In this document: positions 1 through 16,248 of the stretch, piece by piece
Numbering within the stretch: the first letter of the stretch is position 1
How the letters are laid out: each line of letters opens with the position of its first letter
Origin: a virus
Taxonomy: Duplodnaviria > Heunggongvirae > Uroviricota > Caudoviricetes
IMG/VR virus record: IMGVR_UViG_2667527666_000002
Location: 1 to 17,684 of that record
DNA length: 17,684 bases
Direction: 5' to 3' (one strand)
Notes under the pieces: model-generated
Told to the model about the DNA's origin: nothing
Database searches by the model: none
The model's input: only the letters and a program-made list of their open reading frames with translations
Position numbers and translations under genes: made by a program

Positions 1-1254
1 ATGCTGGAACAAATGGGCATTGCCGCGAAGCAAGCCTCGTATAAATTAGCGCAACTCTCCAGCCGCGAAAAAAATCGCGTGCTGGAAAAAATCGCCGATG
101 AACTGGAAGCACAAAGCGAAATCATCCTCAACGCTAACGCCCAGGATGTTGCTGACGCGCGAGCCAATGGCCTTAGCGAAGCGATGCTTGACCGTCTGGC
201 ACTGACGCCCGCACGGCTGAAAGGCATTGCCGACGATGTACGTCAGGTGTGCAACCTCGCCGATCCGGTGGGGCAGGTAATCGATGGCGGCGTACTGGAC
301 AGCGGCCTGCGTCTTGAGCGTCGTCGCGTACCGCTGGGGGTTATTGGCGTGATTTATGAAGCGCGCCCGAACGTGACGGTTGATGTCGCTTCGCTGTGCC
401 TGAAAACCGGTAATGCGGTGATCCTGCGCGGTGGCAAAGAAACGTGTCGCACTAACGCTGCAACGGTGGCGGTGATTCAGGACGCCCTGAAATCCTGCGG
501 CTTACCGGCGGGTGCCGTGCAGGCGATTGATAATCCTGACCGTGCGCTGGTCAGTGAAATGCTGCGTATGGATAAATACATCGACATGCTGATCCCGCGT
601 GGTGGCGCTGGTTTGCATAAACTGTGCCGTGAACAGTCGACAATCCCGGTGATCACAGGTGGTATAGGCGTATGCCATATTTACGTTGATGAAAGTGTAG
701 AGATCGCTGAAGCATTAAAAGTGATCGTCAACGCGAAAACTCAGCGTCCGAGCACATGTAATACGGTTGAAACGTTGCTGGTGAATAAAAACATCGCCGA
801 TAGCTTCCTGCCCGCATTAAGCAAACAAATGGCGGAAAGCGGCGTGACATTACACGCAGATGCAGCTGCACTGGCGCAGTTGCAGGCAGGCCCTGCGAAG
901 GTGGTTGCTGTTAAAGCCGAAGAGTATGACGATGAGTTTCTGTCATTAGATTTGAACGTCAAAATCGTCAGCGATCTTGACGATGCCATCGCCCATATTC
1001 GTGAACACGGCACACAACACTCCGATGCGATCCTGACCCGCGATATGCGCAACGCCCAGCGTTTTGTTAACGAAGTGGATTCGTCCGCTGTTTACGTTAA
1101 CGCCTCTACGCGTTTTACCGACGGCGGCCAGTTTGGTCTGGGTGCGGAAGTGGCGGTAAGCACACAAAAACTCCACGCGCGTGGCCCAATGGGGCTGGAA
1201 GCACTGACCACTTACAAGTGGATCGGCATTGGTGATTACACCATTCGTGCGTAA
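1..1254 (+). CDS. proA: Gamma-glutamyl phosphate reductase (glutamate-5-semialdehyde dehydrogenase), complete 417 aa
   Basis: Full-length ORF from ATG at 1 to TAA at 1252-1254; translation matches the ProA/aldehyde dehydrogenase family over its whole length; position immediately upstream of tRNA-Thr matches the proBA-thrW arrangement of E. coli. Confidence 0.95.
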
Positions 1255-1260
1255 ATAAAA

Positions 1261-1320
1261 CCGGGTGATGCAAAAGTAGCCATTTGATTCACAAGGCCAT
1301 TGACGCATCGCCCGGTTAGT
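1261..1320 (+). terminator. Candidate proA terminator: 11-bp stem (1261-1271 with 1305-1315, one G-U pair) around a long loop, followed by TTAGTTTT
   Basis: Inverted repeat ccgggtgatgc / gcatcgcccgg seen directly, T-rich tail 1316-1323. The loop is long (33 nt) and may contain the thrW promoter, so the call is weak. Confidence 0.25.
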
Positions 1321-1368
1321 TTTAACCTTGTCCACCGTGATTCACGTTCGTGAACATGTCCTTTCAGG

Positions 1369-1444
1369 GCCGATATAGCTCAGTTGGTAGAGCAGCGCAT
1401 TCGTAATGCGAAGGTCGTAGGTTCGACTCCTATTATCGGCACCA
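1369..1444 (+). tRNA. thrW: tRNA-Thr, anticodon CGU, with encoded CCA end
   Basis: 76-nt cloverleaf-compatible sequence GCCGATATAGCTCAGTTGGTAGAGC...GGTTCGACTCCTATTATCGGCACCA; anticodon loop TT-CGT-AA; T-arm GGTTCGA present. Confidence 0.93.
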
Positions 1445-1458
1445 TTTAAATCAATAAG

Positions 1459-2596
1459 TTACACATCATTAGTACCTTCCTTATTTTTTGACTGGGACAA
1501 ATTTGGGACCGATGGGTTCAGGATCGAGTCTATTTGCCGTGCGTGTTCGGTAAGGTGATTAGGTGCAAGGTGAGCATATCGACGAACCATTTCGATAGAC
1601 TCCCAGCCTCCCATTTCCTGTAACACTGACAACGGGACTCCGGCTTGAACCAGCCAGCTTGCCCAGGTGTGTCTCAAGTCGTGAAATCTGAAATCATCAA
1701 TACCAGCCCGTCTCAGCGCCGCTTTCCAGGCTGTGTTTGCGTCATACCGCATCTTCCTGACCGTTGGCGCTTTCCTTGTACACAAATACCCAACGGTGAT
1801 GATTCCCGATTTGTTTTTTCAATACGCGACATGCAGTATCATTCAGCGCAACGCCAATTGCGCGGTTTGATTTACTCTCTTCCGGGTTTATCCATGCCAC
1901 CCGGCGCTGCATGTCTATTTGTTGCCATTCAAGGTTGATGATGTTCGAGCGTCTTAAGCCTGTTGCCAGTGCAAATTCAACAACAGACTTTAATGGCTCC
2001 GGACATTCATCAATCAGCCTTTGTGCTTCATGGGGCTCCAGCCAGCGGATCCGTTTATTCTTTGGTTGAGGCACTTTAATAATTGGTGCCTTATCCAGCA
2101 TTTTCCATTCACGCTCTGCGGCTCTTAGTAGGGCCTTTATAAATGAAAGATGCGTAGCCTTTGTTGCAACGGACGCTGGTTTTGGCATGTATTCTGGAAC
2201 AGGTTTCCCTTTTTTTCTGCATGCTTCTGCCCTGAGTTTCCAGTTTTCCTCATGACGCCGGTTCGTCATTTTCTGCATTGCTGAATAAATTTTTGATTCA
2301 GTAATGTCTCTTAGTTGCATTCCTGCGAAATGTTGAAGCCAGAATCCGATCCGGCTTTTGTCATCGTCCAGTGATTTTTTATGTGCTTTCTCTTCGAGCC
2401 ACCTGATACACGCCTCCTCGAACGTCATATCAGGTATTTCACCAAGTTTGCTGACCCGCCATGCTTCAGCCTTTAGCTTGTCATGGAGCTCTGTCGCCTG
2501 CCTTTTGTCCTTTGTTCCAAGAGACTGTTTAAATCTTTTACCGTTCGGCAATGTGAAACTGGCGTACCATATTTCACCTCTGCGGAAGAGTGACAT
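1459..2596 (-). pseudogene. int: Phage tyrosine integrase, reading frame broken near 1742-1800 (N-terminal 284-aa frame plus C-terminal catalytic fragment in another frame)
   Basis: ORF 1742-2596 begins [14 protein letters not shown] with RBS GAGGAAA upstream of the ATG at 2596; the C-terminal ORF 1459-1785 carries the HxxR box ([11 protein letters not shown]) and the Tyr-containing VRRYAHL motif but lies in a different frame. The two frames overlap over 1742-1785, consistent with a 1-nt indel near aaggaaagcgcc. Confidence 0.7.
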
Positions 2597-2823
2597 TTTC
2601 TTTCCTCTGTTATGCCATCACCCGCGCTCACCAGGACAGTATGCAGCGGAGACTGAAGCGCCGCAATGCAGGCTTGTCGTGTTGTGAGGTAAGGAGATTT
2701 TAGTTTAGTGGGGTCTTTGCGTGTTGCCTGTAGGCGGCCTGTTCGTATCCAGTTGGTAGCGGTAGGTCTGGATATCTTGAGAAACTGACAGGCCTCATCG
2801 AGTGTGAGGCTGTATGGCTCCAT
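2473..2823 (-). CDS. xis: Excisionase / AlpA-family HTH DNA-binding protein
   Basis: Start ATG at 2823 ([31 protein letters not shown], an Xis/AlpA-type HTH) overlaps the stop of the upstream gene as TAATG. The frame stays open to 2473, overlapping the int start by about 124 nt, so the true C-terminus is uncertain. Confidence 0.6.
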
Positions 2824-3128
2824 TATTTCACCTCTTGCTGTGTCATTGTTGAAAAATGGATACCAGCTCGTTGCTGCCAGACGATCCAACCGAGAGTCAT
2901 ATCCCATGCCATGTATTCGTTATCGCCGTTTTTTGCTCTCCGACGATCTACTAAGTCACCGAAACGCTTTTCCATGAATAATTCATAGGCTTCGCGTTCA
3001 TCTGGCTCTACTTCCAGAGATACGAGTGCGATTTCATAAGCACGGCGCTCAATATCGTCTCGAACCTCTAGGCTGCTGATTCGTTCTTTGATTTCTTTAA
3101 TCAGTTCTTTATTGGTAAATGTGGTCAT
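2823..3128 (-). CDS. Hypothetical early-left phage protein, 101 aa, acidic (yfdT-like by position and length, from memory)
   Basis: ORF with ATG at 3128 overlapping the upstream gene's stop (TAATG coupling); protein-like composition; last gene but one before xis in a co-directional operon. Confidence 0.55.
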   Translation of the reverse strand: MTTFTNKELIKEIKERISSLEVRDDIERRAYEIALVSLEVEPDEREAYELFMEKRFGDLVDRRRAKNGDNEYMAWDMTLGWIVWQQRAGIHFSTMTQQEVK

Positions 3129-3490
3129 TATGCTCCAGCCTCCGGTGCTTTTGGCATTACTGCCCAGTGAGTGATATTGACGTTTTCAAGGTCCCCGACC
3201 TGAAATGTCCACTGCCATTCTCCGGTTTCTTTTTGTCCCCAGGTGTACCAGAGAGAACGCCAGCCAATCAGCCAGCCTTCTCCATTAGCATCAAATAACA
3301 GAACACTTTCATTTGCTGGTGGCAGTTCAGCTGACACTGGTATTATTTTGTTTTCCAGTGCCGCACATTTAGCTTCAAGCGCGTCGAATTTACGTACCAG
3401 GTACTCAGCATTTGTTTCGTTCACTTTCAGATCTCGCGGTACACATTTCCCGCGAAGAAACCCTTCCATTTCGAAAACATTCATGCGCAT
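3128..3490 (-). CDS. DUF551-like phage protein, 120 aa
   Basis: C-terminal ...NITHWAVMPKAPEAGA resembles the DUF551 C-terminal motif (recalled, not searched); start ATG at 3490 with GGAG 9 nt upstream; stop overlaps the next gene's start. Confidence 0.6.
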   Translation of the reverse strand: MRMNVFEMEGFLRGKCVPRDLKVNETNAEYLVRKFDALEAKCAALENKIIPVSAELPPANESVLLFDANGEGWLIGWRSLWYTWGQKETGEWQWTFQVGDLENVNITHWAVMPKAPEAGA

Positions 3491-4017
3491 TTGCGTAACT
3501 CCGATAAATCGTTAAAACGTTCCATAAACATCCCGTAGGCATGACCCGGTGCCAGTGGAATCACGTTGAACATCTCTGTTGCCGGGATGCCTTCCAGTAC
3601 AGGCCAGAAAGAGCCATCATCAAGCCCGAGATCGCGGCGTTCGGTTGCCAGCATGATGAGATCGGCATATTTCACGGGTGTACTCATAACTGGGGGTAAC
3701 CCGTATTTCTCACGGATTACGGCGTCTATTTTTTCTTCCATCCGTTTATAGTCAGGAAGAAGGCGTTTCAGTGGTGCGGGAATGTCCTGGCAATACGCTT
3801 CTGTTGCATCATGCATTAACGCTTCAAAAGCAAATTCCTGCGGCACCAGCTGGCTGCAAAGAACCGCATGTTGGGCGACGCTGTAGAAGTGCGAAAGATG
3901 ACCGGCAAAGCGACAGATATTTGAAAGGGAAACCGCGATATCGTTAATATCGATGTCGTCTTTATTTATCTTGTCATAATAAAAATGCTTCCCGGAAAAA
4001 GTTTTAATAAATGACAT
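3481..4017 (-). CDS. HD-domain phosphohydrolase (YfdR-like putative 5'-deoxynucleotidase), 178 aa
   Basis: Contains the H...HD metal-binding signature (SVAQHAV ... LMHDATEAY); start chosen at the ATG at 4017 (MSFIKTF) preceded by GGAG 8 nt upstream, rather than the GTG at 4044 used in the ORF track. Confidence 0.75.
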   Translation of the reverse strand: MSFIKTFSGKHFYYDKINKDDIDINDIAVSLSNICRFAGHLSHFYSVAQHAVLCSQLVPQEFAFEALMHDATEAYCQDIPAPLKRLLPDYKRMEEKIDAVIREKYGLPPVMSTPVKYADLIMLATERRDLGLDDGSFWPVLEGIPATEMFNVIPLAPGHAYGMFMERFNDLSELRKCA

Positions 4018-4110
4018 TTTGTTCTCCACGTATATGCACTGCACCGCGCTGAATTCTGGTAAAAGGAAGCCCTCACCATCCGGTGATTATTGAGTTAATT
4101 ACGTTTCCAT

Positions 4111-4132
4111 AAATGCCCCCGCAGGGGCATTT
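4111..4132 (-). terminator. Perfect 9-bp palindromic hairpin (AAATGCCCC-CGCA-GGGGCATTT) between the 274-aa gene and the HD gene; possible intra-operon attenuator
   Basis: Inverted repeat seen directly. The U residues lie within the stem ends rather than in a clean downstream U-tract, so terminator function is uncertain. Confidence 0.35.
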
Positions 4133-4144
4133 GCAGTAATGAAA

Positions 4145-4969
4145 TCAGGCGGTGAAAGTACCAATAAAGGTTTCTACTTTGCTGTCTTTGAATTTCTCAA
4201 CAAGCAGATCACGAAATTCGTTAGCCATTTCTTCCTGCACCGCTTCCAGCTGAATAATGCGCAGAACCAGTACAGGACGATCGCCAGTGATAATGCTGAG
4301 GCGTAATTTAAACGGACGTTCTTTCAGACCTTCAAACGGAACGCATTTAAATTCAAATGTCACTGGCATAATGTCTTTGGTCTTCGCTTCGACAGACTCC
4401 ATCAGGGAGCGTTTGCCGCTGAAGTCATTATCTTCAAAATCAGCGGTCTGGTTCGCTTCAATTGTGATTTTACGGATCGCCGCAGCCGCTTTGGTTGCCT
4501 GAATGGCGTCACCATTAGCATCAAAGCCCACAAGGTAGTCGGCCCAGTCTTCAATCCATTCTGCCAGTGACTTCTGGGAGTTACGCTCGCCGTTAACAGA
4601 CAACAGGGCAGAGAACGGTGCTGTCTTTTTCAGTTTGAGAGTGGCGGTGTTATCTGCGTGACCTGGTTCATCAATAGTACCCAGGTTAAGCACACTGACG
4701 GCTCGCATATTATCGGCATCGATAAAGCAGCGGGTGCCTTCATCTGCAAGATCTTTAGAATAACGGGTAAAGTCATCGATGCTGGCAGTGGAAAGCGCAC
4801 CACGGAAACGGAAGCGATTTAAATTAAATTTTTCCAGATCATGAATGCGGAAATTCTCAGGCAATGCCACAGCATCGGCACCAATCTTACTGATAATTTC
4901 ATTAACACCCTGAGCAGAAATAAGGGCATGGATTTGATTAATTGCGGTTGCGTCTAAGTTCTGAGACAT
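4145..4969 (-). CDS. Hypothetical phage protein, 274 aa (YfdQ-like)
   Basis: Long ORF with ATG at 4969 and GAGGA 8 nt upstream; size and neighbours (120-aa gene upstream, HD gene downstream) match the recalled yfdP-yfdQ-yfdR order of CPS-53. Confidence 0.7.
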
Positions 4970-5034
4970 AATAAGTCCTCACTATATAAAGATATTCAGT
5001 GATGAGATAAATAATCAGTTTATTAAGAACGATA

Positions 5035-5397
5035 TTAATGACCTGCTGCGCGTAGTTTTCCGTCAGGTTCACCGGCAAGAGTCAGTAATTGTCCCTGGTC
5101 TTCCTGCAGAATAGTCAGGCGACCACCGCGATTGACATACATCGGCGTTTCGGTGGTGTCTTCTTCGGAAATTTTCCCGCGGTTAGTTGGGCGAACATAT
5201 GAGAGTTTGTGTTTGATTTTCACACGGTTCTCATCAAACGGTTCGATTTCCAGGTTGAGCGAGACCTTACCTTTGGTTTTCGTGTTCATCACACCGGAAG
5301 CGACTTCACTGAGAACAGCGCCGATTTTGGTTTCAAATACGCCGCCGTCCAGCTCCCCGATAAATGCCTGCACATCAGTACTGCGTTCGCTAGCCAT
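5035..5397 (-). CDS. Hypothetical phage protein, 120 aa (YfdP-like); first gene of the leftward early operon
   Basis: Start set at the internal ATG at 5397 (MASERSTDVQ...) preceded by GAGGAG 9 nt upstream; the longer 197-aa ORF in the track has a non-protein-like N-terminal extension running into the structured leader. Confidence 0.65.
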   Translation of the reverse strand: MASERSTDVQAFIGELDGGVFETKIGAVLSEVASGVMNTKTKGKVSLNLEIEPFDENRVKIKHKLSYVRPTNRGKISEEDTTETPMYVNRGGRLTILQEDQGQLLTLAGEPDGKLRAAGH

Positions 5398-5445
5398 TTT
5401 GCTGCTCCTCATCATATCGACCCTGCAAGGTCGGTTGGTTTCTCC

Positions 5446-5580
5446 ACAAAACAGAGAAGAACACCTGCGGTGACTGCCGCCCGGATGGATTGGGTTATGA
5501 GCCCGTCGTCCGGTGATTCTCTTCTCTGTTTTGTAAAAAGAGCGGTACCAGCCGGAAGCAAGGGTACAAACTGGTACCGC
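5446..5580 (-). other. Structured element: perfect 15-bp inverted repeat (5446-5460 / 5520-5534, 59-nt spacer) followed by a 10-bp stem (5542-5551 / 5571-5580); candidate cis-acting RNA in the early-left leader
   Basis: Both inverted repeats read directly from the sequence; they lie about 50 nt upstream of the first early-left start codon in a region with no convincing ORF. The strand is assumed from the surrounding operon. Confidence 0.35.
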
Positions 5581-5999
5581 CAAAGCAGTGGCTGTTGTGG
5601 TGGGGTTGTCACTCAGGCGTATGGTCAACCTGACAATCCGGTGCCCTCAACGGGGAAAGAGTAACCCCGCCATACTTACCGCCGCGCCATTTCGCGGATT
5701 ACCACAACGCTGAGAGCACTTAGCCAGTTACGGCACCACACTTTGTCGCGGCTCCATAAATGCCCTCATCGTTGCACCCTGGTCTCTTCCCAGGCGTCAA
5801 ACCGAATCGCCACGCTGGTTAGGCGTCTTATCAGCATCATCATTGACTTGCACATTCCGGCTACCTGGTTTGTTTGCCCGAGCAAGGAGTGGATTGTCCC
5901 CTTTAACGTCCCCAGACCGCTAACGACGCATGTGCCATACGCCGTGTTACAACCAAATTTTGTTAGTACCTTGTTTGTTTGTCTGGAAAGAAAGATAAA

Positions 6000-6050
6000 A
6001 TGAAGTTGCGCATTATGCAAGTGTTTTTGTTGCGAGATATGCAATTTAAA
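6000..6050 (-). promoter_or_regulatory. Candidate OL/pL: two operator-like sites TTGCGCATTATGCAA (6006-6020) and TTGCGAGATATGCAA (6030-6044)
   Basis: Two 15-bp TTGCG-N5-TGCAA dyads 24 bp apart, matching the motif found in the cI-cro intergenic region; located just beyond the end of cI where lambdoid phages place OL/pL. Promoter -35/-10 hexamers are not confidently assigned. Confidence 0.45.
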
Positions 6051-6061
6051 GGGTAATGAAA

Positions 6062-6079
6062 AGCCACCTTTGGGTGGCT
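6062..6079 (-). terminator. Candidate terminator of the repressor gene (stem AGCCACC / GGTGGCT, 4-nt loop)
   Basis: Hairpin about 20 nt beyond the cI stop on the minus strand, followed there by UUU then CAUUACCCUUUAAAUU; the U-tract is short, so the call is moderate. Confidence 0.4.
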
Positions 6080-6099
6080 AATTGATGAGGAGGTAAGGG

Positions 6100-6792
6100 T
6101 TAATTGTGTCGCTTAAGGGTTTGTGACTGGCTGATTAAGACCTTTCCAAAGACCATAAACCGGTGTTCATTTTCGCTGGTAATTCCCCATTCACGGTAAA
6201 TCTGGTTATCAGAAATCACCAGTAGTTTGTCAGGTATCATTTGCAGTCGTTTGACATAAATTTTATCATCAAAACCAAATACATAGATACCATCTCCATC
6301 AAACTGATTGATACTGACATCAACGAAGATGAGATCTCCTGGCTCAATGGTTGGACACATACTGTCCCCACGAACGTTGATAACTTTAATGTGATTGGCT
6401 GGCCGTCCGCCAAACATCGATACAGCATTATCAGTTCTGTATTCAATGGCATGAATCACATCAATGACATCACCGCCCTGGATAAGGCCATTTCCCGCAC
6501 TGGCACTGACATCCAGCATTTCAATACGGAATACATCCTTCACCTGCGCAACATCCTCACTAATACTGTTTTTACATACAGTATTACTTTTGACGTCTGA
6601 GGTAAAGAGATCAGCAATATCAACACCTAAGCTCCTGGCAATATTACTCAGGGCTTGTTCAGTGAATTGTTTCTGCTTACCTGTTTCCAGGCGTGAGATA
6701 TTCGCCGCATCCACTCCTATTGCTTCAGCGAGATCGGCGATTTTCATGTTCTTCGCCTGGCGAAGTTGTCTGACTCGGTTTCCTATGTTCAT
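6100..6792 (-). CDS. cI: CI-like prophage repressor (N-terminal XRE-type HTH, C-terminal S24/LexA-type self-cleaving peptidase), 230 aa
   Basis: N-terminal HTH (IADLAEAIGVDAANISRLETG); Ala-Gly cleavage-site candidate (SASAGNG); catalytic Ser in GDSM and Lys in YVKRL; divergent from a Cro-like gene. Confidence 0.9.
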   Translation of the reverse strand: MNIGNRVRQLRQAKNMKIADLAEAIGVDAANISRLETGKQKQFTEQALSNIARSLGVDIADLFTSDVKSNTVCKNSISEDVAQVKDVFRIEMLDVSASAGNGLIQGGDVIDVIHAIEYRTDNAVSMFGGRPANHIKVINVRGDSMCPTIEPGDLIFVDVSINQFDGDGIYVFGFDDKIYVKRLQMIPDKLLVISDNQIYREWGITSENEHRFMVFGKVLISQSQTLKRHN

Positions 6793-6889
6793 GCGTTTAT
6801 TACATTTCTTTATTGCGCGTTAAGCAAATCAACTTGCGCAAAATATTTGCGTGAAATAATATGCTCATCACGCAATATGTGGAGGTCAT
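6793..6889. promoter_or_regulatory. Immunity-region operator/promoter (OR with divergent pRM and pR): operator TTGCGCGTTAAGCAA (6813-6827), palindrome CGCAAAATATTTGCG (6837-6851), candidate pR -35 TTGCGC (6834-6839) and -10 TAATAT (6857-6862)
   Basis: 97-bp divergent intergenic region between cI and cro containing dyad repeats of the same TTGCG family as the OL candidates, with centres 24 bp apart; sigma70-like hexamers with 17-bp spacing upstream of cro. Confidence 0.6.
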
Positions 6890-7150
6890 ATGCAATCACC
6901 ATTACGGAATGTGCGTAAGGCGCACGGATTTACTTTGCAGCATGTTGCTGCTGGCGTTCAGGTCAATCCAGCGACGCTGAGTCGTATTGAAAGACTGGAA
7001 CAAATTCCATCTATCGATCTTGCAGAACGTCTGGCCAATTTTTTTAAGGGTGAAATCAGCGAAATGCAGATTCTTTATCCGGCACGTTTTCAATCTAGCC
7101 AAAACCAGAATGGGTTTAAACCACAGGAACAGGAGGTAAGCCGTGGGTAA
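6890..7150 (+). CDS. cro: Cro-like XRE-family HTH regulator, 86 aa
   Basis: ATG at 6890 with GGAGG 5 nt upstream; HTH motif (LQHVAAGVQVNPATLSRIE); divergent from cI. Confidence 0.8.
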   Translation: MQSPLRNVRKAHGFTLQHVAAGVQVNPATLSRIERLEQIPSIDLAERLANFFKGEISEMQILYPARFQSSQNQNGFKPQEQEVSRG

Positions 7151-7700
7151 TCATCACTGGAAAGTGGAAAAACAGCCTGAGTGGTACGTGAAAGCTGTCA
7201 GAAAAACTATCGCGGCGTTGCCGGGGGGTTACGCTGAAGCTGCTGAGTGGCTGGATGTAACAGAGAACGCATTATTTAACCGCCTTCGTGCCGATGGCGA
7301 TCAGATTTTCCCGCTGGGATGGGCAATGATTTTACAACGTGCTGGTGGCACTCACTTCATTGCCGACGCTGTGGCGCAGTCTGCAAATGGCGTCTTTGTG
7401 TCTCTTCCTGACGTCGAGGATGTGGACAATGCCGATATTAACCAGCGTTTACTGGAAGTCATTGAACAGATCGGCAGTTATTCAAAACAGATTCGTTCGG
7501 CAATCGAAGACGGTGTAGTGGAACCGCATGAGAAGACAGCAATTAACGACGAGCTGTACCTCTCAATTTCGAAGCTGCAGGAGCATGCAGCACTTGTCTA
7601 CAAAATTTTTTGCGTTTCAGAAAGTAATGACGCCCGCGAGTGTGCAGCTCCGGGCGTCGTGGCGTCGATTGCTTCTGGTTGTGGAGAAACTAACGCATGA
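7143..7700 (+). CDS. Phage regulatory protein, 185 aa, at the CII position (CII / YdaT-like)
   Basis: GTG start at 7143 with AGGAGGT 6 nt upstream; 8-nt overlap with the end of cro; its stop overlaps the next ATG (ATGA). Function inferred from position only. Confidence 0.6.
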
Positions 7701-8035
7701 ACAGTTTAACAACACACTACCGTCGCTCGCAACTGATTGCGCTTCCTGTACCGGGTGGAAAAGCGAAGGTGGAGTATTGCTATGCAGTAAATGTACCAGG
7801 TGACAGGGAAATTGTAACCCACAGCTTTGCTGAGTGGGCTGTGGGAGATTTCAACCGGCAGAAGGAGACAGTCCTTTGCGACAAGTTAACCGCTGGTTCA
7901 AAGATCACTACGGAGTGCCCGTCAGAGTCATTCGTTGGGAGCCGGAAACACAACGGGTTATCTACCTCCGTGAAGGCTATGAGCATGAGTGCTTCAGCCC
8001 GCTCGAACAGTTTCGTCGTAAATTCAGGGAAATAG
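7697..8035 (+). CDS. Hypothetical protein, N-terminal frame (start translationally coupled to the upstream gene); possibly the 5' part of a frameshifted gene
   Basis: ATG at 7697 overlaps the upstream stop (ATGA); first 60 codons are protein-like, the remainder of this frame is low-complexity. Confidence 0.3.
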
Positions 8036-8055
8036 AGGTCGGTCATGAGCACTAA
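7834..8055 (+). CDS. Hypothetical small protein, C-terminal frame (...[39 protein letters not shown]...); true start unclear (a TTG near 7876 follows GAAGGAG)
   Basis: Protein-like frame whose stop at 8053-8055 overlaps the next gene's start at 8045 by 11 nt, as expected for a genuine operon member. Confidence 0.3.
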
Positions 8056-8386
8056 ATTAACCGGCTATGTATGGGATGGTTGCGCTGCGTCAGGCATGAA
8101 ATTATCCAGCGTGGCAATTATGGCCCGCCTGGCTGATTTCAGTAATGACGAAGGTGTGTGCTGGCCATCAATTGAAACTATTGCCCGTCAGATTGGCGCG
8201 GGGATGAGTACCGTCAGAACGGCTATCGCACGGCTGGAAGCAGAAGGCTGGTTAACGCGTAAGGCGCGTCGCCAGGGTAACCGCAATGCGTCGAATGTTT
8301 ATCAGCTTAACGTTGCGAAGCTTCAGGCAGCGGCATTTTCTCAACTGTCAGATTCTGACCCGTCAAAATCTGACGCATCAAAATGA
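8045..8386 (+). pseudogene. Replication-initiator (O-like / winged-HTH N-terminal domain) gene, 3'-truncated by the IS629 insertion
   Basis: N-terminal HTH-type domain ([13 protein letters not shown]...SIETIARQIGAGMSTVRTAIARLEAEGWL); the ORF ends on the TGA formed by the first three bases of the IS inverted repeat (8384-8386); no C-terminal domain. Confidence 0.6.
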
Positions 8387-8425
8387 ACCGCCCCGGGTTT
8401 CCTGGAGAGTGTTTTATCTGTGAAC

Positions 8426-9316
8426 TCAGGCTGCCAGATCATCGTTTCCGATGGAAGCATAATAAGCTTTTTCTGCTTCTGCCGGAGGAGTATGGCCCAG
8501 CCTTTCCAGCAATCGTCGATTGTTATACCAGTCCACCCACGTGAGTGTGGCCAGTTCCACTTCTGCACGGTTTTTCCAGCTCTTACGGTGTATTACCTCC
8601 GCTTTGTAAAGACCATTGATGCTCTCCGCCATCGCGTTGTCATACGAGTCGCCTGTACTTCCTGTTGATGCCAGTAATCCGGCTTCCTTAAGCCGCTGTG
8701 TGTAGGCCAGCGATACATACTGAGAACCTTTATCACTGTGATGGACCGTGCCGGACGGTCGACGGGCCCATAACGCCTGCTCCAGTGCATCCAGCACGAA
8801 TGTCGTTTCCATGGACGATGAGACCCGCCACCCCACGATGTATCCGGCAAACACATCAATGATGAACGCCACATAGACGAAGCCCCGCCATGTGCTGACG
8901 TAAGTAAAATCAGCCACCCACAGCTGGTCAGGTCGTTCTGCCACGAACTGACGGTTTACGCGGTCGCCTGCGGCAACGGCTTTCCGGCTGATGGTCGTAC
9001 GGACCTTTTTACCCCGGAGAACACCGGCAAGTCCCATAACCGCCATGAGACGTGCCACAGTGCATCTGGCCACTCTGATACCTTCCCGTAACAACTGACG
9101 CCAGACTTTACGCACACCGTATACCTTGTGATTTTCATCGTATACGCGCTGTATCTCTTTCTTCAGCCAGTCATCGCGCTGCGCACGGGCACTGCGTTTA
9201 TCCGGATGATGTCGCTGTTGCTGACAGTGGTAATACGTTGACGGGGCAATATGCAGTTCGCTGCATAGCGGTCCGACCCCGTACTGCTCACGCAGCTTAT
9301 CCAGCAGTGGCATCAT
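8426..9316 (-). CDS. IS629-like transposase OrfB (DDE/integrase catalytic domain), 296 aa
   Basis: Translation [29 protein letters not shown]... with a DDE-type core (WVADFTYV ... HSDKGSQY ... [10 protein letters not shown]). Confidence 0.9.
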
Positions 9317-9639
9317 TTTTTCCAGAGGCGGTCGAACTCCGCCTTCGCAAAATAAGCGGAAGCCTGGCGAAGGATATCGTTACTGCGGCGCAGTTCACGA
9401 TTTTCACGTTCCAGCTCTTTCAGACGCTGACGTTCAGCGGTGGTGAGCCCTCCATCACCGCCCCCGGTATCCCGCTCATGCTGGCGAACCCAGACACGCA
9501 GAGTCTCCGGCGTACAGCCAATCTTTGGAGCAATGGAACAAATTGTCGCCCATTGTGAGTCATATTCGCTCTGACTTTCCAGAACCATACGGACTGCCCG
9601 TTGACGGACTTCGGGGGAAAAACGAGTATTTTTAGTCAT
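9313..9639 (-). CDS. IS629-like transposase OrfA (HTH), 108 aa
   Basis: Translation [42 protein letters not shown]...; identical to the orfA of the second copy at 17358-17684. Confidence 0.9.
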
Positions 9640-9693
9640 CCTGTTTACCTCTTTCTCAGGAAGTTTAGTCTCCAGGATTCCCGGGGCGGTTCA

Positions 9694-10238
9694 ATTAACA
9701 CCCTGTTTGGCCCGTTTGTTCTGGATCTGTTCACTGACGGTGATAACGCCAAATGTGCTGCGTATTACACGGCGGAAGACAACGCGCTGGCGCATGACTG
9801 GTCAGAACGCCTTGCGGAGCTTAAAGGTGCTGCCTTTGGTAATCCCCCATACAGCCGCGCCAGTCAGCATGAGGGGCAATACATCACCGGCATGCGTTAC
9901 ATCATGAAGCATGCCAGTGCCATGCGTGATAAAGGCGGGCGCTATGTTTTCCTGATCAAAGCTGCCACCAGCAAGTGTGGTGGCCGGAAGATGCAGATCA
10001 TATTGCTTTTATTCGCGGGCGTATTGGTTTTGAACTGCCTGCCTGGTTTATCCCGAAGGATGAGAAGCAGGTGCCGACAGGCGCTTTCTTCGCTGGTGCT
10101 ATTGCTGTTTTCGACAAGACCTGGAAGGGACCGGCAATCAGCTACATCGGGCGCGATGAACTTGAGGCATGTGGTGAGGCCTTTCTGGCGCAGGTTCGCC
10201 AGCAGGCAGAAAAACTGGTCAGGGAGATGGCGGCATGA
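9694..10238 (+). pseudogene. Phage Dam-type DNA N6-adenine methyltransferase remnant: 5'-truncated at the IS boundary and frameshifted near 9960-9980
   Basis: Frame 1 immediately after the IS reads INTLFGPFVLD...FGNPPYS (NPPY catalytic motif); the C-terminal part (VWWPEDADHIAFIRGRIGF...) continues in another frame (ORF 9975-10238), whose stop overlaps the next gene's ATG. Confidence 0.6.
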
Positions 10239-10561
10239 CGACGTTAACTCAATGCCAGCAGCAGGTGCTGGATATGCTGATTTCTTATCAGAAAGAACGT
10301 GGCTTCCCGCCAACCAATCAGGAGGTGGCAACCATGCTGGGATACCGTTCAGTGAATGCAGCGGTGGAGCATCTTCGCGCACTGGAGAAAAAAGGCGTCA
10401 TCACGATAAAGCGTGGCGTGGCCCGGGGCATCACGCTTCATACCGCGGTGAAGGACGACGACAGCGAGGCGGTCGGGATTATCCGCTCACTGCTTGCCGG
10501 TGAGGAAAACGCAAGGCTGCGTGCAGCCCACTGGTTACATGAGAGGGGCCTGAAAGTATGA
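10235..10561 (+). CDS. LexA N-terminal DNA-binding-domain-like protein, 108 aa, without peptidase domain
   Basis: MTTLTQCQQQVLDMLISYQKERGFPPTNQEVATMLGYRSVNAAVEHLRALEKKGVI resembles the LexA winged-HTH domain; no S24 domain follows; start/stop coupled to neighbours. Confidence 0.6.
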   Translation: MTTLTQCQQQVLDMLISYQKERGFPPTNQEVATMLGYRSVNAAVEHLRALEKKGVITIKRGVARGITLHTAVKDDDSEAVGIIRSLLAGEENARLRAAHWLHERGLKV

Positions 10562-10947
10562 AGCTGATCCTGCCTTTTCCGCCCAGCGTGAACACGTACT
10601 GGCGACACCCCAACAAAGGGGCGTTTGCTGGTAAGAGCCTGATAAGCGCGGCGGGGCGAAAATTCCAGAGCGCGGCGTGCGCAGCAATAGTTGAGCAGTT
10701 ACGTCGTCTGCCGAAACCAACGTCGGCACCTGCTTCAGTGGAGATCGTGTTGTTTCCTCCGGATAACAGGATCCGCGATCTGGACAACTATAACAAGGCG
10801 CTGTTTGACGCCCTGACCCACGCGGGGGTGTGGGAAGACGACAGTCAGGTGAAAAGAATGCTGGTGGAGTGGGGACCGGTTATCCCGGAAGGGAAGGTCG
10901 AGATCACTATCAGTAAGTACGAGAAAACGGCGGGTGCAGCTGCCTGA
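10558..10947 (+). CDS. rusA: RusA-family Holliday-junction resolvase, 129 aa
   Basis: Conserved RusA features: LPFPPSVNTYWRH near the N-terminus and RDLDNYNKALFDALT acidic catalytic region. Confidence 0.85.
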   Translation: MKLILPFPPSVNTYWRHPNKGAFAGKSLISAAGRKFQSAACAAIVEQLRRLPKPTSAPASVEIVLFPPDNRIRDLDNYNKALFDALTHAGVWEDDSQVKRMLVEWGPVIPEGKVEITISKYEKTAGAAA

Positions 10948-10966
10948 TTAAGAGGAGAAACGAAGT

Positions 10967-11776
10967 ATGAATAATCTGATGGTCATTGATGGTATTGAAG
11001 TTCGTCGTGATGCTTATGGGCGTTACAGCCTGAACGATCTGCATCGCGCAGCAGTAGCATCTGGTGCAAATGCCAGAACCAAGGAGCCAGGAAAGTTTCT
11101 TTCCAGCCAACAAACTGTTGAGCTTGTTCATGAATTAACCAACACCCAGAATTTGGGTGTTGACCCGGTGAGCGTGATTCATGGGGGAAATGAACGGGGA
11201 ACGTATGTCTGTAAGGAACTGGTGTATGCCTATGCAATGTGGATCAGCCCGTCATTCCATCTGAAGGTGATCCGTACTTTCGATATGGTAACCAGCGCGC
11301 CGGAAAAGTTATCCGGACAGGCTGCTGACAAGATGCAGGCTGGCGTGATTCTGCTGGACTTTATGCGCCGGGAGTTAAATCTGTCTAACTCATCTGTGCT
11401 TGGGGCCTGTCAGAAACTCCAGGAGGCTGTTGGCTTACCGAATCTGGCACCGCGCTATGCCATTGATGCACCTGCTGACGCGCCTGATGGCTCAAGCCGC
11501 CCCACGCTGTCGCTGAGTGCACTGCTGAAGCAGTATGGTATCCGCCTGACGGCTAATCAGGCATATCACCAGATGGCGAAGCTGGGGATCGTTGAACAAC
11601 GCGAACGATACAGCCGTACCGCGATTAACAACATCAAAAAATTCTGGTCGCTGACAGCGAAAGGCTGCATGTTCGGCAAGAACATCACCAGTCCCGCAAA
11701 TCCGCGCGAGACGCAGCCGCATTTCTTCGAATCCCGATTCCCTGAGCTGTTAAAGCTGCTCGATACCGTTCATTGA
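10967..11776 (+). CDS. KilA-N domain antirepressor-like protein, 269 aa
   Basis: N-terminal KilA-N/APSES-type domain (IDGIEVRRDAYGRYSLNDL ... GTYVCKELVYAYAMWISPSFHLKV); RBS AGGAG upstream of the ATG at 10967. Confidence 0.75.
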   Translation: MNNLMVIDGIEVRRDAYGRYSLNDLHRAAVASGANARTKEPGKFLSSQQTVELVHELTNTQNLGVDPVSVIHGGNERGTYVCKELVYAYAMWISPSFHLKVIRTFDMVTSAPEKLSGQAADKMQAGVILLDFMRRELNLSNSSVLGACQKLQEAVGLPNLAPRYAIDAPADAPDGSSRPTLSLSALLKQYGIRLTANQAYHQMAKLGIVEQRERYSRTAINNIKKFWSLTAKGCMFGKNITSPANPRETQPHFFESRFPELLKLLDTVH

Positions 11777-11777
11777 G

Positions 11778-12773
11778 GTGACCGTGAGAGCACTACTGAC
11801 CCCTGAAATTGCCCCGCGTATGGGGATCGTATTGTTCAGGCCAGGTTCAGAGCTGATGCCCCTGTTTATGCAGGGGCGTGTCCTGCTGGAGCCTGAGCCG
11901 GAACGTTATTCATCTTTTGCCAGTGGTGCCGTTCCGGCTGCATCACAACCGCTGGCGGATGATCCTGCCGTTCGGGCCGTGTTCCGCAATGAGGCAGTGA
12001 TCCGTCGTGCTGGTGGCGTGGAATGTCTTGAAAGCTGGTTACTTCGTGAAAAAGGCTGCCAGTGGCCTCATTCCGACTGGCACAGCGAGAACATGACCAC
12101 AATGCGACACGCGCCGGGCGCAATCCGTCTGTGCTGGCACTGCGATAACCAACTGCGCGATCAGTTCACGGAACGGCTGGAATCAATGGCAACGGATAAC
12201 TGTGCCCGCTGGGTGTTGTCTGTTGTGCGTCGGGATCTCGGTTTTGATGACAGTCACGTTGTGACAATGCCGGAACTGTGCTGGTGGCTGATTCGTAATG
12301 ATCTGGCGGATGCCTTACCGGAAAGTGCAGCCCGTAAGGCACTGAGATTACCGAAGCCTGTTGTGCCGTCTGTCACCCGGGAAAGTGACCTGGTGCCTTC
12401 GGTTCCTGCCACCAGCATCATCCAGGATAAAGCGAAAAAGGTGCTGGCGCTGAAAGTGGATCCGGAGTCGCCGGACTCTTTTATGTTACGCCCAAAACGT
12501 CGCCGCTGGGTTAATGAAAAGTACACGCGATGGGTTAAGACGCAGCCGTGCGCATGTTGTGGAAAACCTGCTGATGATCCCCACCACCTGATAGGCCACG
12601 GTCAGGGTGGAATGGGGACAAAAGCGCATGACCTCTTTGTGTTGCCTTTGTGCAGAAAGCATCACGACGAGCTGCATGCGGATAATGTGGCATTCGAAGA
12701 GAAGTATGGCTCCCAGCTGGAGCTGATATTTCGTTTTATCGATCGTGCGCTGACGATTGGTGTGCTGGCCTGA
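11778..12773 (+). CDS. DUF968-like nin-region protein, 331 aa, with C-terminal Cys/His (HNH-like) cluster
   Basis: C-terminal motif [43 protein letters not shown]; exact start uncertain (GTG at 11778 or 11784). Confidence 0.65.
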
Positions 12774-12790
12774 TTTTGTGGAGAAAGTTG

Positions 12791-13174
12791 ATGCGTGATA
12801 TTCAGATGGTTCTTGAGCGTTGGGGAGCGTGGGCGGCTAATAATCATGAAGATGTGACCTGGTCGTCCATTGCCGCCGGTTTTAAGGGATTAATTCCTTC
12901 AAAAGTAAAATCTCGCCCGCAATGTTGTGACGATGACGCGATGATCATTTGCGGGTGCATGGCCCGTCTGAAAAAGAACAACAGCGATTTGCACGATTTA
13001 TTAGTAGATTATTATGTAGTCGGTATGACATTCATGTCACTGGCAGGTAAGCATTGCTGCTCTGATGGTTATATCGGGAAAAGGTTACAAAAAGCTGAGG
13101 GCATAATTGAAGGGATGTTAATGGCATTAGATATCTGGTTAGAGATGGATATCGTTGTTAATAACTCTAATTAA
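12791..13174 (+). CDS. Q: Late-gene antitermination protein Q (short Q family), 127 aa
   Basis: Start at the ATG at 12791 with GGAG 8 nt upstream (the ORF track's 12776 start is a TTG); last gene of the nin-like block, in the position Q occupies upstream of the lysis cassette. Confidence 0.7.
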
Positions 13175-13207
13175 TATGCCAATTGTTTACTAAAAATTAT
13201 TAAAAAT

Positions 13208-13225
13208 GGGGCGTTGAGACGCCCC
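13208..13225 (-). terminator. Candidate intrinsic terminator for the porin gene (stem GGGGCGT / ACGCCCC, 4-nt loop, followed on the minus strand by AUUUUUAAUAAUUUUU)
   Basis: Hairpin and U-rich tract read directly; lies about 140 nt beyond the porin stop, after three further hairpins. Confidence 0.4.
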
Positions 13226-13363
13226 CAAAAATAAAGGGTAATATATAACAGAAGGTTTATATAGTTAGAAGCAAGGTTGTGCTTCTAAAGGAAGTGGCTT
13301 GAGGGAGCCACTTATATGTTGGGGAGGCAACGCCTCCCGCAACATATCTTTTTCGTAATCAGA

Positions 13364-14446
13364 TTAGAACTGGTAAACCAGACCTACAGCAACGATGTCA
13401 TCAGTATCAATACCAGCTGTTTTGGTAAACTTACTATCGTCAATTAAGTTGATTTTGTAATCAACAAAAGTGGACATGTTTTTATTAAAGTAGTAAGTAG
13501 CACCGACATCGACATACTTGACTAAGTCTCGGTCACCATGAACACCAAGGTCTTTACCTTTTGACTGAAGGTAAGCAACAGATGGGCGCAGACCGAAGTC
13601 AAACTGATATTGTGCTACTGCTTCAAAGTTTTGTGCTTTGTTTGCAATATGGTTATTACCAAAAACGGTCATATTCTGAGTTTCAGAATATGTGGTAGCC
13701 AGATAGATATTGTTCGCATCATATTTCAGGCCTGCAGCCCATACTTCCGCATTTTTGCCGGAGGCATTGAATTTGCTCTTACCATAGGCGACCTGACCGT
13801 CAGTGCGATCTGATTTAGCATAGGTTGCACCCACGCCGAATCCTTCATACTCATAAGTAGTGGAGAAACCGAAACCATCACCATTGGCTTCAGTTACGTC
13901 AGTGCGGTCATTTTTACCCTGATACTGAGCAGCAAAGTTCAGGCCATCGACCAGACCAAAGAAGTCGTTGTTACGATAAGTTGCAACACCAGTAGTGCGA
14001 CCAGTCATGAACACATCTGTTTGGGTCCAGGTATCACCACCGAATTCTGGCAGGACGTCAGTCCACGCACCGATGTCGTATGCTACACCGTAGTTACGGC
14101 CGTAATCGATTGAGCCGTAATCACCAAATTTCAGGCCTGCAAATGCAAGACGGGTTTTGTCTTTGGAAGAACCTTGAGATTCAGCGCGGTTGCCTTTGAA
14201 TTCATATTCCCACTGACCGAAACCAGTCAGTTGATCGTTGATTTGGGTTTCACCTTTGAAGCCAAGACGGGCATAAGTAGTATCACCATCATCTGCATCA
14301 TTAGAGGAGAAGTAGTGCTTAGCATTAACTTTCCCGTACAGATCCAGCTTGTTACTGTCTTTATTATAAATTTCAGCTGCCTGAGCAGACATCGCCATCA
14401 GTACTGATGCAGCTACAGCAGAAATTGCCACTGTTAATTTTTTCAT
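13364..14446 (-). CDS. General-diffusion outer-membrane porin, OmpC/NmpC/Lc family, 360 aa precursor
   Basis: Signal peptide ending AQA-AE; mature N-terminus [17 protein letters not shown] typical of OmpC-family porins; C-terminal ...VGLVYQF beta-barrel signature; opposite strand to flanking phage late genes. Confidence 0.92.
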
Positions 14447-14874
14447 CGTGAGCCCTTTTTTTTGAACTATTATTAAAAAATGATGTCACTGCGCGATAAA
14501 TATTCATCTAATCAATGTGATTATTTCAAGATGTAAGTTTTGGTTTCTCGTTTGATTTGTGAAGTAGATCTCTATTTTTATCTGAACTTTTTTCTATCGA
14601 ATCCTATTCATAGCTCTTGGCTGAATAAAAATAAATCTATTAGCCAATTTATACTAACGGTTGTTATTTATAAGTGCTCTATAATTTGAAGGTTCAATTT
14701 AAATCGGCTAAAAATAACACTGGAAATTATTTGTTGGTTATTTGTTGAGATTTGCTTATGTATTTGTAGTGGTGTTTTCAATACTCGGTAGCATTCTCGC
14801 AAATATCATTTAGTGGTTTACGTACGTAAAAAATTGGTTATGCTGTTAAGAGTGGTTACTTCGTCACACAGCTT

Positions 14875-14908
14875 AAACCCGCCGTCGAGCGGGTTTTTCC
14901 ATTTTTTG
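14875..14908 (+). terminator. Intrinsic terminator (8-bp stem AAACCCGC / GCGGGTTT, then TTTTTCCATTTTTT), candidate tR' about 115 bp upstream of the holin gene
   Basis: Perfect stem followed by a T-rich tract on the plus strand; no plus-strand gene ends upstream, consistent with a short terminated late-promoter leader transcript. Confidence 0.6.
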
Positions 14909-15019
14909 AGTCTCGATATTAGCTGATAACCCAATACCTGAGTTATTCACTGACTTCGAGTCTGTTACGTTTCGTAGTATTCCCTCAATTTACACCCGCT
15001 TTGTCTGCGAGGTGGGGTT

Positions 15020-15235
15020 ATGAAATCCATGGATAAGTTAACAACGGGTGTCGCCTATGGCACCTCAGCAGGTAGTGCCGGGTACTGGTTTTTACAGCTG
15101 CTAGATAAAGTCACGCCCTCACAGTGGGCGGCAATTGGAGTGCTGGGTAGCCTGGTATTTGGCCTGCTGACGTACCTGACAAACCTTTATTTCAAGATTA
15201 AAGAAGATAAGCGTAAGGCTGCGAGAGGTGAATAA
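15020..15235 (+). CDS. S: Phage-21-type class II holin (pinholin), 71 aa
   Basis: Two predicted TM helices with the glycine-zipper-like [10 protein letters not shown]; basic C-terminus [11 protein letters not shown]; stop overlaps the endolysin start (TAATG). Confidence 0.9.
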
Positions 15236-15732
15236 TGTCGCCATCATTACGCAAGGCTGTAGCAGCTGCTATTGGTGGTGGGGCTGTTGCCATAGCGTCT
15301 GTGCTCATCACTGGTCCGAGTGGTGACGATGGTCTGGAAGGTGTCAGCTACATACCATATAAAGATATTGTTGGTGTATGGACTGTATGTCACGGGCATA
15401 CAGGAAAAGACATCATGCTCGGTAAAACGTATACCAAAGCAGAATGCAAAGCACTCTTGAATAAAGACCTTGCCACTGTCGCCAGACAAATTAACCCGTA
15501 CATCGAAGTCGATATACCGGAAACAACGCGCGGCGCTCTTTACTCATTCGTTTACAACGTGGGTGCTGGCAATTTCAGAACATCGACGCTTCTTCGCAAA
15601 ATAAACCAGGGCGATATCAAAGGCGCATGTGATCAGCTACGGCGCTGGACATACGCTGGCGGTAATCAATGGAAAGGACTGATGACTCGCCGTGAGATTG
15701 AGCGTGAAGTCTGTTTGTGGGGGAAACAATGA
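15235..15732 (+). CDS. R: SAR (signal-anchor-release) endolysin, lysozyme-like, 165 aa
   Basis: N-terminal Gly/Ala-rich SAR domain ([20 protein letters not shown]) followed by a lysozyme-type catalytic domain; stop overlaps the Rz start (ATGA). Confidence 0.92.
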
Positions 15733-16187
15733 GCAGAGTAACCGCGATTATCTCCGCTCTGGTTATCTGCATCATCGTCTGCCTGTCATGGGCTGTTAAT
15801 CATTACCGTGATAACGCCATTACCTACAAAGCCCAGCGCGACAAAAATGTCAGAGAACTGGAGAAGGCGAACGCCACCATCGCTGACATGCGGAAGCGTC
15901 AACGTGATGTAGCAGAACTCGATGCAAGATACACAAAGGAGCTTGCTGATGCTAACGCGACTATCGAAAGTCTCCGTGCTGATGTTTCTGCTGGGCGTAA
16001 GCGCCTGCAAGTCGCCGCCACCTGTGCAAAGTCAACGACCGGAGCCAGCGGCATGGGCGATGGAGAAAGCCCAGGACTTACAGCAGATGCTGAACTCAAT
16101 TATTACCGTCTCCGAAGTGGAATCGACAAGATAACCGCGCAGGTTAACTACCTGCAGGAATACATCAGGACGCAATGCCTGAAATAA
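15729..16187 (+). CDS. Rz: Rz i-spanin, 152 aa
   Basis: ATG at 15729 overlapping the endolysin stop; N-terminal TM helix ([17 protein letters not shown]) followed by a coiled-coil-like periplasmic domain. Confidence 0.8.
15949..16134 (+). CDS. Rz1: Rz1 o-spanin lipoprotein, about 61 aa, embedded in the +1 frame of Rz
   Basis: Signal peptide [20 protein letters not shown] with lipobox VSAC, then proline-rich [13 protein letters not shown]; lies entirely within Rz in a different frame. Confidence 0.7.
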
Positions 16188-16219
16188 TTTTTTTGCAAAT
16201 CACAAAGTCCATTTAATGA

Positions 16220-16241: not shown

Positions 16242-16248
16242 GCAATAA

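Follow-up and report, generated by a model that had tools for sequence, protein, structure and literature searches.

A modular, untranslated leader carrying a conserved structured RNA, element C, at the early-left promoter of an N-less lambdoid prophage

Background

The closest described counterpart of the locus studied here is the N-less lambdoid phage HK022, whose putL and putR are cis-acting antiterminator RNAs (PMC9378689). The locus bears on how other N-less lambdoids (SfV-like serotype converters, mEp460, cdtI, and the Stx2c/Stx2k phages) pass their early terminators: the SfII, SfV, and SfIV genomes are stated to be without N (PMC3851460), and a 2025 analysis of such N-less phages only suggested that they are "maybe put-like" (PMC12315714). 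Here, we analyzed a 17,684-nucleotide (nt) stretch of Caudoviricetes DNA (IMG/VR record IMGVR_UViG_2667527666_000002, positions 1 to 17,684; hereafter "the window"), with a focus on the interval 5398–6099 between a phage repressor gene and the first early-left gene, and describe in it an untranslated leader and a structured minus-strand RNA that we call element C (5774–5949).

Two further groups of phage RNAs are relevant to this locus. The T4 species 1 and 2 RNAs, and GOLLD/ROOL beside prophage tRNAs, are stable RNAs co-transcribed with phage tRNAs, while StxS is a leader-derived prophage small RNA that ends at an early terminator. STnc100/PasD (RF02076) is likewise a leader-derived prophage small RNA ending at an early terminator (bioRxiv 10.64898/2026.05.13.724894). 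For the interval itself, an initial annotation had proposed a cis-acting antitermination RNA analogous in role to put, a novel non-coding RNA, or a locus encoding short peptides.

Results and discussion

An untranslated leader assembled from RNA modules

The analyses below show that the leftward transcript from the early-left promoter PL of an N-less lambdoid prophage (SfV/mEp460/cdtI type) carries at 5398–5990 a leader that is untranslated and heavily folded. Its RNA modules, each mobile independently of the others, follow one another as C, D2, B, the terminator tL, and A. BLAST against phage genomes divides the interval into modules with distinct distributions: 5398–5582 is found in SfV, SfIV, SfII, and ST64B; 5586–5708 in PPompW phages; 5702–5945 in the epsilon15-like phages phiV10 and TL-2011b (83% identity); and 5781–5958 in P1, P7, D6, and SJ46 (~79% identity).

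That 5398–6099 contains no convincing open reading frame (ORF), as the initial annotation held, was borne out by Pfam, PHROG, and Shine-Dalgarno (SD) plus ATG checks. The four mechanical ORFs there, which span 41–92 codons, have no Pfam match, and a search of both strands of the region for SD-preceded ATG ORFs of 10 codons or more found none, so that no N-like ORF lies where a lambdoid N is expected and the suggested peptides below 60 amino acids (aa) find no support; nor was a boxA found within two mismatches near PL or PR of the window. The single PHROG match, phrog_33599 (function unknown), falls on an ORF that contains tL and whose frame is disrupted by a 1-nt indel in the homologous locus L148 (L-numbers label loci of relatives, with L159 denoting SfV, L158 ST64B, L002 SfII, and L160 F1055), and we therefore regard this ORF as a miscall across a conserved hairpin. 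"Hypothetical protein" coding sequences are called over the conserved hairpins (window 5412–5612, minus strand) in the GenBank records of mEp460, cdtI, and PhiR phages, and these, together with phrog_33599, most likely represent artefacts of annotation. The idea that a protein gene (N, rex, or other) has decayed here, or that small peptides are encoded, could draw on the mechanical ORFs, on the phrog_33599 match, and on the "hypothetical proteins" of the phage records; we consider it very improbable, as the ORFs lack Pfam and SD plus ATG support and begin inside operators or span the terminator, the L148 indel breaks the one frame with a match, homologs differ in length by amounts that are not multiples of three (cores of 183–215 nt), and changes in the helices are compensatory.

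Folding of the interval is well beyond chance. A 563-nt stretch scored z values of −4.2 and −4.3 on the two strands against dinucleotide shuffles, with 0 of 100 shuffles as good. Both perfect inverted repeats reported earlier were recovered exactly, i.e., the 15-nt repeat at 5446–5460/5520–5534 with 59 nt between its arms (chance expectation in 800 nt ~3 × 10^−4, or 800^2/2 divided by 4^15) and the 10-nt repeat at 5542–5551/5571–5580, and the hairpin at 5651–5669 is present in the minimum-free-energy fold. The covariation check suggested alongside them came out in favor of conserved non-coding RNA structure, with compensatory changes in C, D2, and module A. The Rfam/Infernal check gave no relevant family in the region: a gathering-threshold scan of the whole window with Rfam 15 returned only a tRNA and the ALIL pseudoknot, and a permissive scan of 5200–6300 (E up to 10) had a microRNA model as its best match (E 0.32). 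What had been described as a structured 700 bp thus holds for 5398 to ~5990, while the right ~110 bp (5990–6099) consists of the cI terminator, operators, and a plausible PL. Element C, which is the most conserved and most structured part, had not been singled out.

Element C is an unannotated structured RNA family

As a family of structured RNAs, C is genuine and has so far gone unannotated. It measures 176 nt in the window and 160–180 nt across variants, and comprises the hairpin P1 (5924–5944), the helix P2 (5912–5920 with 5860–5868) around a variable insert, an invariant GGUAGCCGGAAUGUGCAAG (5847–5865), the hairpin P4 (5796–5827), whose loop forms a pseudoknot with a downstream GGUG(U), and the hairpin P5 (5778–5794). 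When this hand-built structure was tested on 32 representatives of <95% identity, 97.2% of cells were paired compared with 88.1% in shuffles (0 of 500 shuffles equal it), and compensatory changes appeared in 11 of 28 pairs (72 cells) versus 0–5 pairs in slid controls. The pseudoknot covaries as well, with one pair being C:G in 29 sequences and A:U in three. G-U pairs make up about 12% of the paired cells; on the opposite strand they would become A-C mismatches, which argues for an RNA of the minus strand. Some 60 positions are invariant, many of them unpaired, although members were recruited by exact 16-mer or 19-base patterns, so that those words are invariant by construction and the diversity of the family is underestimated.

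A calibrated covariance model of C (R1) has a single match in the window (5774–5949, minus strand; 143.8 bits, E 2 × 10^−41), and hence its scan showed no second copy that could correspond to putR. RNAalifold additionally proposes a long-range GGCACAU/AUGUGC pairing, both sides of which are invariant partly by construction; the natural loop variants GGUAC, AGCAC, and GGAAC bear on this pseudoknot neither way. The core sequence strings of C were not found in the papers searched, and a prior description of C or of module E (below) in King et al. 2011 is possible. We also considered an ops/RfaH site, as GGTAGC is common to ops, and rejected it because key positions differ from the consensus on comparison by eye.

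The strand evidence bears on one further explanation, namely that the repeats work as DNA, in a cruciform, a protein-binding site, or a recombination site. Perfect palindromic arms and the position of the region at a mosaic junction hotspot would suit such a role, which is nonetheless scarcely credible: the ~12% G-U wobbles fail to pair on the complementary strand or in DNA, a U-tract follows the terminator stem on one strand only, and orientation is constant with respect to tRNAs and promoters.

Distribution and genomic context of element C

An exact 16-mer scan of viral contigs yielded at least 120 C loci, with 78 distinct cores (183–215 nt) among the matches listed. About a third of complete E. 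coli genomes (1831 of 5426) carry the element, as do 581 plasmid records, which are mostly non-mobilizable and apparently P1-like; only one of the records listed has an annotated feature under its C match. A pattern scan using one genome per species located C in about 20 Enterobacteriaceae/Erwinia species, and 24 further R1 matches (122–163 bits) came from 20 named Enterobacteriaceae/Erwinia species and one contig labelled Bacillota (probably mis-binned), while the other pattern hits of the species scan were at chance number and fail R1.

Three unrelated phage types carry C: lambdoid, P1-like, and epsilon15-like. In P1, it is flanked by tRNA-Ile2 and ban and points the same way as the ban operon, and phiV10 has it in a divergent unit followed by a tRNA; in both, its orientation corresponds to the minus strand of the window. 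A tRNA directly adjoins C in 42 of 124 loci, on the same strand every time, with tRNA-Ile2 just upstream of C in P1-likes and tRNA-Arg(UCU) just after D2 in epsilon15-likes. In lambdoid contexts, operator/promoter regions of at least eight immunity types precede C by 5–110 nt, and in two of these types (L010/L041 and L031/L112) it starts within ~10 nt of the predicted transcription start. One locus (L042) encodes a repressor 56% identical to HK022 cI and has a closely similar PL, without nun; there, too, C follows PL. A long ORF-free stretch follows C: a strong terminator precedes the first long ORF in 20 of 32 distinct contexts, the first ORF starts at +190 to +1700, and the commonest layout is a promoter, the structured RNA, and, at +260 to +360, a strong terminator. 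The order is C, terminator, xis, and int in both L087 and L121.

Promoter, terminator, and the other leader modules

Apart from the operators, these features are on the minus strand, and all are described here in the direction of transcription. The cI-like repressor gene ends at a terminator found by a terminator scan (6055–6079; stem 6062–6079 followed by UUUCAUU), which is followed by two 16-bp operator-like repeats (OL) detected by a direct-repeat search (6005–6020 and 6029–6044; TTGCATAnnnCGCAAC on the minus strand). Relatives show the same two-repeat layout with other operator sequences. A putative PL occupies 5992–6020, with −35 TTGCAT (6015–6020), a 17-bp spacer, and −10 TATCTT (5992–5997). 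Its geometry (TTGCnn, 17 bp, TAWYTT) recurs in ST64B/F1055 and L010, and it was missed by a consensus promoter scan because its −35 is weak. From this arrangement, we infer that transcription would start near 5985.

Directly at this predicted start lies an ~18-nt remnant of a further module, E (CCAGACAAACAAACAAGG; 5970–5987), recognized by comparison with L121, SfII, and L019. Module E is a conserved RNA of 62–76 nt, in which a closing helix surrounds two hairpins, one of them covarying, and in many N-less relatives, including L159 3421–3496 (SfV), L158 3097–3172 (ST64B), L002 3871–3946 (SfII), L019, L087, and L093, its start lies ~10 nt past the −10 of PL. It had no Rfam match in SfII, the sole E-carrying locus scanned, and the window had no match to the covariance model of E (R2). 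Compared with put, E shows some resemblance at its 5′ end and a different architecture, and R2 finds nothing in HK022. E is a second candidate leader or antiterminator RNA.

Element C is followed in most variants by D2 (5702–5775), a long hairpin, CAACGAUGAGGGCAUU ... AGUGCUCUCAGCGUUG, with a hypervariable interior, which phiV10 also has. Its closing helix is retained through many double changes in about 20 variants. A T-arm-like GGUUCGAUUCC stem-loop is located inside or just after D2 in L160 (F1055), L007, L072, and L099, which hints at tRNA-derived or tRNA-like inserts. Module B (5594–5708), delimited by its inverted repeat, its fold, and BLAST, in which it is independently distributed, is closed by GUUGUGGU/ACCACAAC and contains the 5651–5669 hairpin. 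At 5701–5709, the 3′ strand of D2 (CGUUG) overlaps the 5′ strand of the B closing helix (GUUGUGGU) by 4 nt, and hence the two closing helices cannot both form fully together. In relatives, an STnc100-like module sits within the same closing stem as B; in SfII, SfV, and ST64B it fills the B slot and ends at a terminator matching 5535–5580. Its counterpart in SfII (L002 3112–3327) is a sub-threshold STnc100 match, at 39.5 bits against a gathering score of 47.

The 10-bp repeat of the initial annotation forms the GCGGUACCAG/CUGGUACCGC stem of tL (5535–5580). With a G+C-rich stem of 10–13 bp and a ΔG of −21.2 in the terminator scan, tL is predicted to be an intrinsic terminator, an assignment that follows from the U-tract UCUUUUU after the 10-bp stem on the minus strand. 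Terminators of unrelated sequence occupy the tL position in ST64B, L132, L148, and L093, and such non-homologous terminators at the same site argue that termination itself is the conserved function. Next comes module A (5440–5534), a helix of ~25 bp whose lower part is the 15-bp repeat and which is topped by a conserved three-way junction; RNAalifold on eight variants gave 39 pairs, nine of them with compensatory changes. It is always located between the terminator and the ribosome-binding site, regardless of which gene comes first. The start of the first gene (5395–5433) consists of a small hairpin (5420–5433), the SD GAGGAG (5406–5411), and the ATG (5395–5397).

In its position, module A is reminiscent of the lambda N leader with its RNase III site, and it is conceivable that the modules serve the early-left mRNA and adjacent tRNAs solely in RNA processing, stability, or translation (as sites for RNase III, E, or P, or as 5′ stabilizers), with no effect on transcription. 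A ~25-bp helix right before the ribosome-binding site whatever the first gene, the abutment of C and D2 on tRNA ends, and the T-arm-like GGUUCGAUUCC in some D2 inserts all fit this explanation. We consider it improbable, given that a simple cleavage site needs no 175 nt with a pseudoknot and ~60 invariant positions, and that the terminator problem would remain unsolved.

A possible readthrough role for element C

With a probability of roughly 0.4, we propose that C acts in cis to carry polymerase through tL and the untranslated leader, as an analog and not a homolog of put. Under this proposal, C, probably with D2, would act on the very RNA polymerase that transcribed it, or on an elongation/termination factor of the host; polymerase from the repressor-controlled PL would then read through tL and ~540 nt of untranslated RNA into the early-left genes, a task that N/nut performs in lambda and put RNA in HK022. 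Without C, transcription would end at tL. More speculatively, the hairpin of module A, located before the first ribosome-binding site, would control processing or translation.

Several findings are consistent with readthrough by C, among them its position just downstream of repressor-controlled promoters, including the HK022-like PL of L042, and the strong terminators that precede the first long ORF in 20 of 32 contexts. One strong terminator lies between PL of the window and the early-left genes, and no Pfam or PHROG antiterminator match exists among the window proteins. Phages with C only, such as mEp460 and cdtI, have no N, boxA, or E, yet carry the same terminator before their early-left genes. 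Further, the invariant unpaired nucleotides of C and its restriction to Enterobacteriaceae/Erwinia fit binding to a conserved host machine. As for the put analogy of the initial annotation, it is reasonable yet was pinned on the wrong hairpins: the position between the repressor and the early-left genes is plausible, while of the two hairpins then put forward one is the terminator and the other lies downstream of it.

Some leaders additionally carry a perfect rrn-type boxA (UGCUCUUUAACAA) after a hairpin, directly after C in L084 and after E in L143 (6804), and L027 has a close boxA variant, AGCUCUUUAAUAA, after C; the L084 and L027 sites lie about +125 from the C 16-mer. These sites suggest possible Nus-factor-type antitermination signals in the same leaders, which are clearly a location where this phage group puts antitermination-like elements.

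A more general proposal is decidedly tentative: C (with D2) may represent a new class of cis-acting, RNA-polymerase-modifying antiterminator, unrelated to put, that N-less lambdoids would use, among them the Stx2c-, Stx2k-, and Cdt-converting phages, and that P1-like phage-plasmids and epsilon15-likes would have recruited to cross tRNA genes, terminators, and long untranslated stretches.

A number of observations weigh against readthrough by C. The element is unrelated to put and more than twice its size. In P1-likes, it lies ~2.3 kb from Pban, after tRNA-Ile and before ban, and no convincing terminator follows, while the epsilon15-like unit of promoter, C, D2, tRNA-Arg, and terminator resembles a stand-alone RNA operon. 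SfV, SfII, and ST64B, which are working phages, as well as F1055, keep the terminator and module A without C and carry module E at the PL start instead, and several phages have both C and E, so C is neither necessary nor the only candidate. Lastly, terminator enrichment after C is modest, at 1.06 per context compared with 0.56–0.72 in controls.

The main rival, a possible if doubtful one, takes C, alone or together with D2 and B, to be the gene of a stable non-coding RNA that would act in trans, for example by binding or titrating a host or phage protein. The RNA would be released by termination at tL and by tRNA-processing enzymes, and the early-left genes would be reached through leak-through or otherwise. 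This fits the commonest layout of promoter, structured RNA, and strong terminator, the abutment of C on tRNA-Ile2, or on tRNA-Arg-UCU via D2, always on the same strand, and the presence of C in three unrelated phage types and contexts; the alternative module of relatives resembles the small RNA STnc100 and ends at the same terminator, and C is dispensable in SfV, SfII, and ST64B. What does not fit is that lambdoid C is repressor-controlled and that polymerase has no other route to the early-left genes, no further promoter being predicted from tL to their ATG; moreover, promoter distance and the 3′ neighbors of C vary so widely that the RNA would have no defined ends, and no gene for a target or partner protein travels with C.

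The complex pseudoknotted fold, the many invariant unpaired bases, and the location upstream of a terminator would also be expected of the sensor in a riboswitch-like or factor-sensing leader, in which C would respond to a metabolite, an ion, a tRNA, or a host protein and decide termination at tL. The contact might come from the invariant AGCCGGAA of C, which has an 8-nt complement in the terminator loop/3′ arm, although 8-mer complements are expected by chance in 800 nt, and a crude RNAduplex test of C against tL gave no excess for the window-type context (z 0.02). Such a sensor is unlikely, in that the gap between C and the terminator ranges from 100 to 500 nt with unrelated modules or a tRNA in between, terminator sequences differ, the same terminator occurs in phages without C, the downstream genes are mutually unrelated, and no Rfam riboswitch matched at E up to 10. 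We retain cis-acting readthrough by C as the preferred reading, with the probability given above.

Prophage setting

The window represents an E. coli-type prophage beside a proA-like gene and a tRNA (1369–1441). A 417-aa ORF within 1–1441 resembles proA by size and position alone and is followed by the tRNA, and the integration site of the prophage appears to be a tRNA of the thrW type. Its closest BLAST relatives are mEp460, cdtI, Ayreon, 2H10, and Stx2c/Stx2k-converting phages, with partial sharing of the interval with SfV, SfII, and SfIV. By Pfam search, the repressor ORF (6100–6792, minus strand) is of cI type, with helix-turn-helix and Peptidase_S24 domains, and the ORFs at 6890–7150 and 7143–7700 are Cro-like and CII-like, respectively. 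The first early-left gene (ATG at 5397, minus strand) belongs to phrog_204, of unknown function, by PHROG search, and is followed by a gene for a DUF2303 protein.

The integrase (1462–2596, minus strand) aligns to SfII Int in two pieces in different frames (residues 1–299 and 277–387), which indicates that it is frameshifted and that the prophage is probably defective. An IS3-family insertion sequence (8426–9696) breaks up the rightward operon and contains the ALIL frameshift pseudoknot (9242–9358, 120 bits). A second, inverted IS3-family copy begins at 17301 (17301–17684), with 381–384 nt at 99.7–100% identity.

Comparison with known systems

Relative to lambda, the window has the same map slot as N/nut with an rrn-type boxA (PL, signal, terminator, and early-left genes), and a few relatives have a perfect boxA right after C or E. 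Unlike lambda, the window is without an N-like ORF, boxA, or boxB, and it is hence not a member of that system. The locus resembles STnc100/PasD in having, in a lambdoid prophage, a structured RNA close to the promoter that ends at a strong intrinsic terminator, whereas the window has no STnc100 match at E up to 10, and C lies upstream of the STnc100-like module, is larger, and is unrelated to it. As with the T4 species 1 and 2 RNAs, GOLLD, and ROOL, C is phage-borne and can abut same-strand tRNA genes (the 42 of 124 loci above), but it has no sequence or model match to GOLLD or ROOL (both of which are in Rfam), and lambdoid C stands at PL without a tRNA.

HK022 put offers the closest parallel. 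Like C, it is non-coding, folded, and promoter-proximal in an early operon of an N-less lambdoid with a terminator downstream, and the order in the window, PL (~5985), C (5949–5774), tL (5580–5535), and ATG (5397), likewise places C just after an early, repressor-controlled promoter and before a terminator. Some C variants start at the transcription start, as putL does; in L042, C follows an HK022-like PL as putL follows PL in HK022; and the short strings ACGGCG and CAUGCGUCG..AGCG are common to C and putL stem I. The put RNAs act on RNA polymerase without help from phage proteins, and mutations in the rpoC zinc-binding domain abolish their action. In contrast to C, put consists of ~70 nt in two side-by-side stem-loops with conserved bulges, whereas C has at least four helices and a pseudoknot, plus D2, is present as a single copy with no putR equivalent, and also occurs next to tRNAs in P1 and epsilon15-like phages. 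We rejected homology between C and put, since R1 has no match in HK022 DNA including putL and putR at E up to 10, with default filters or with filters off, the architecture differs, and only short strings are common to both. Rfam appears to be without a put family, given that HK022 gave no Rfam match.

Together, these comparisons now name concrete RNA candidates for how N-less lambdoids pass their early terminators, with C first and module E second, and with the terminator and the Y-shaped hairpin (module A) as conserved partners. Should C turn out to modify RNA polymerase, just one phage RNA of this sort would have preceded it, and C would be structurally far from put; if it is instead a trans-acting stable RNA tied to phage tRNAs, it would be a widespread and previously unknown non-coding RNA.

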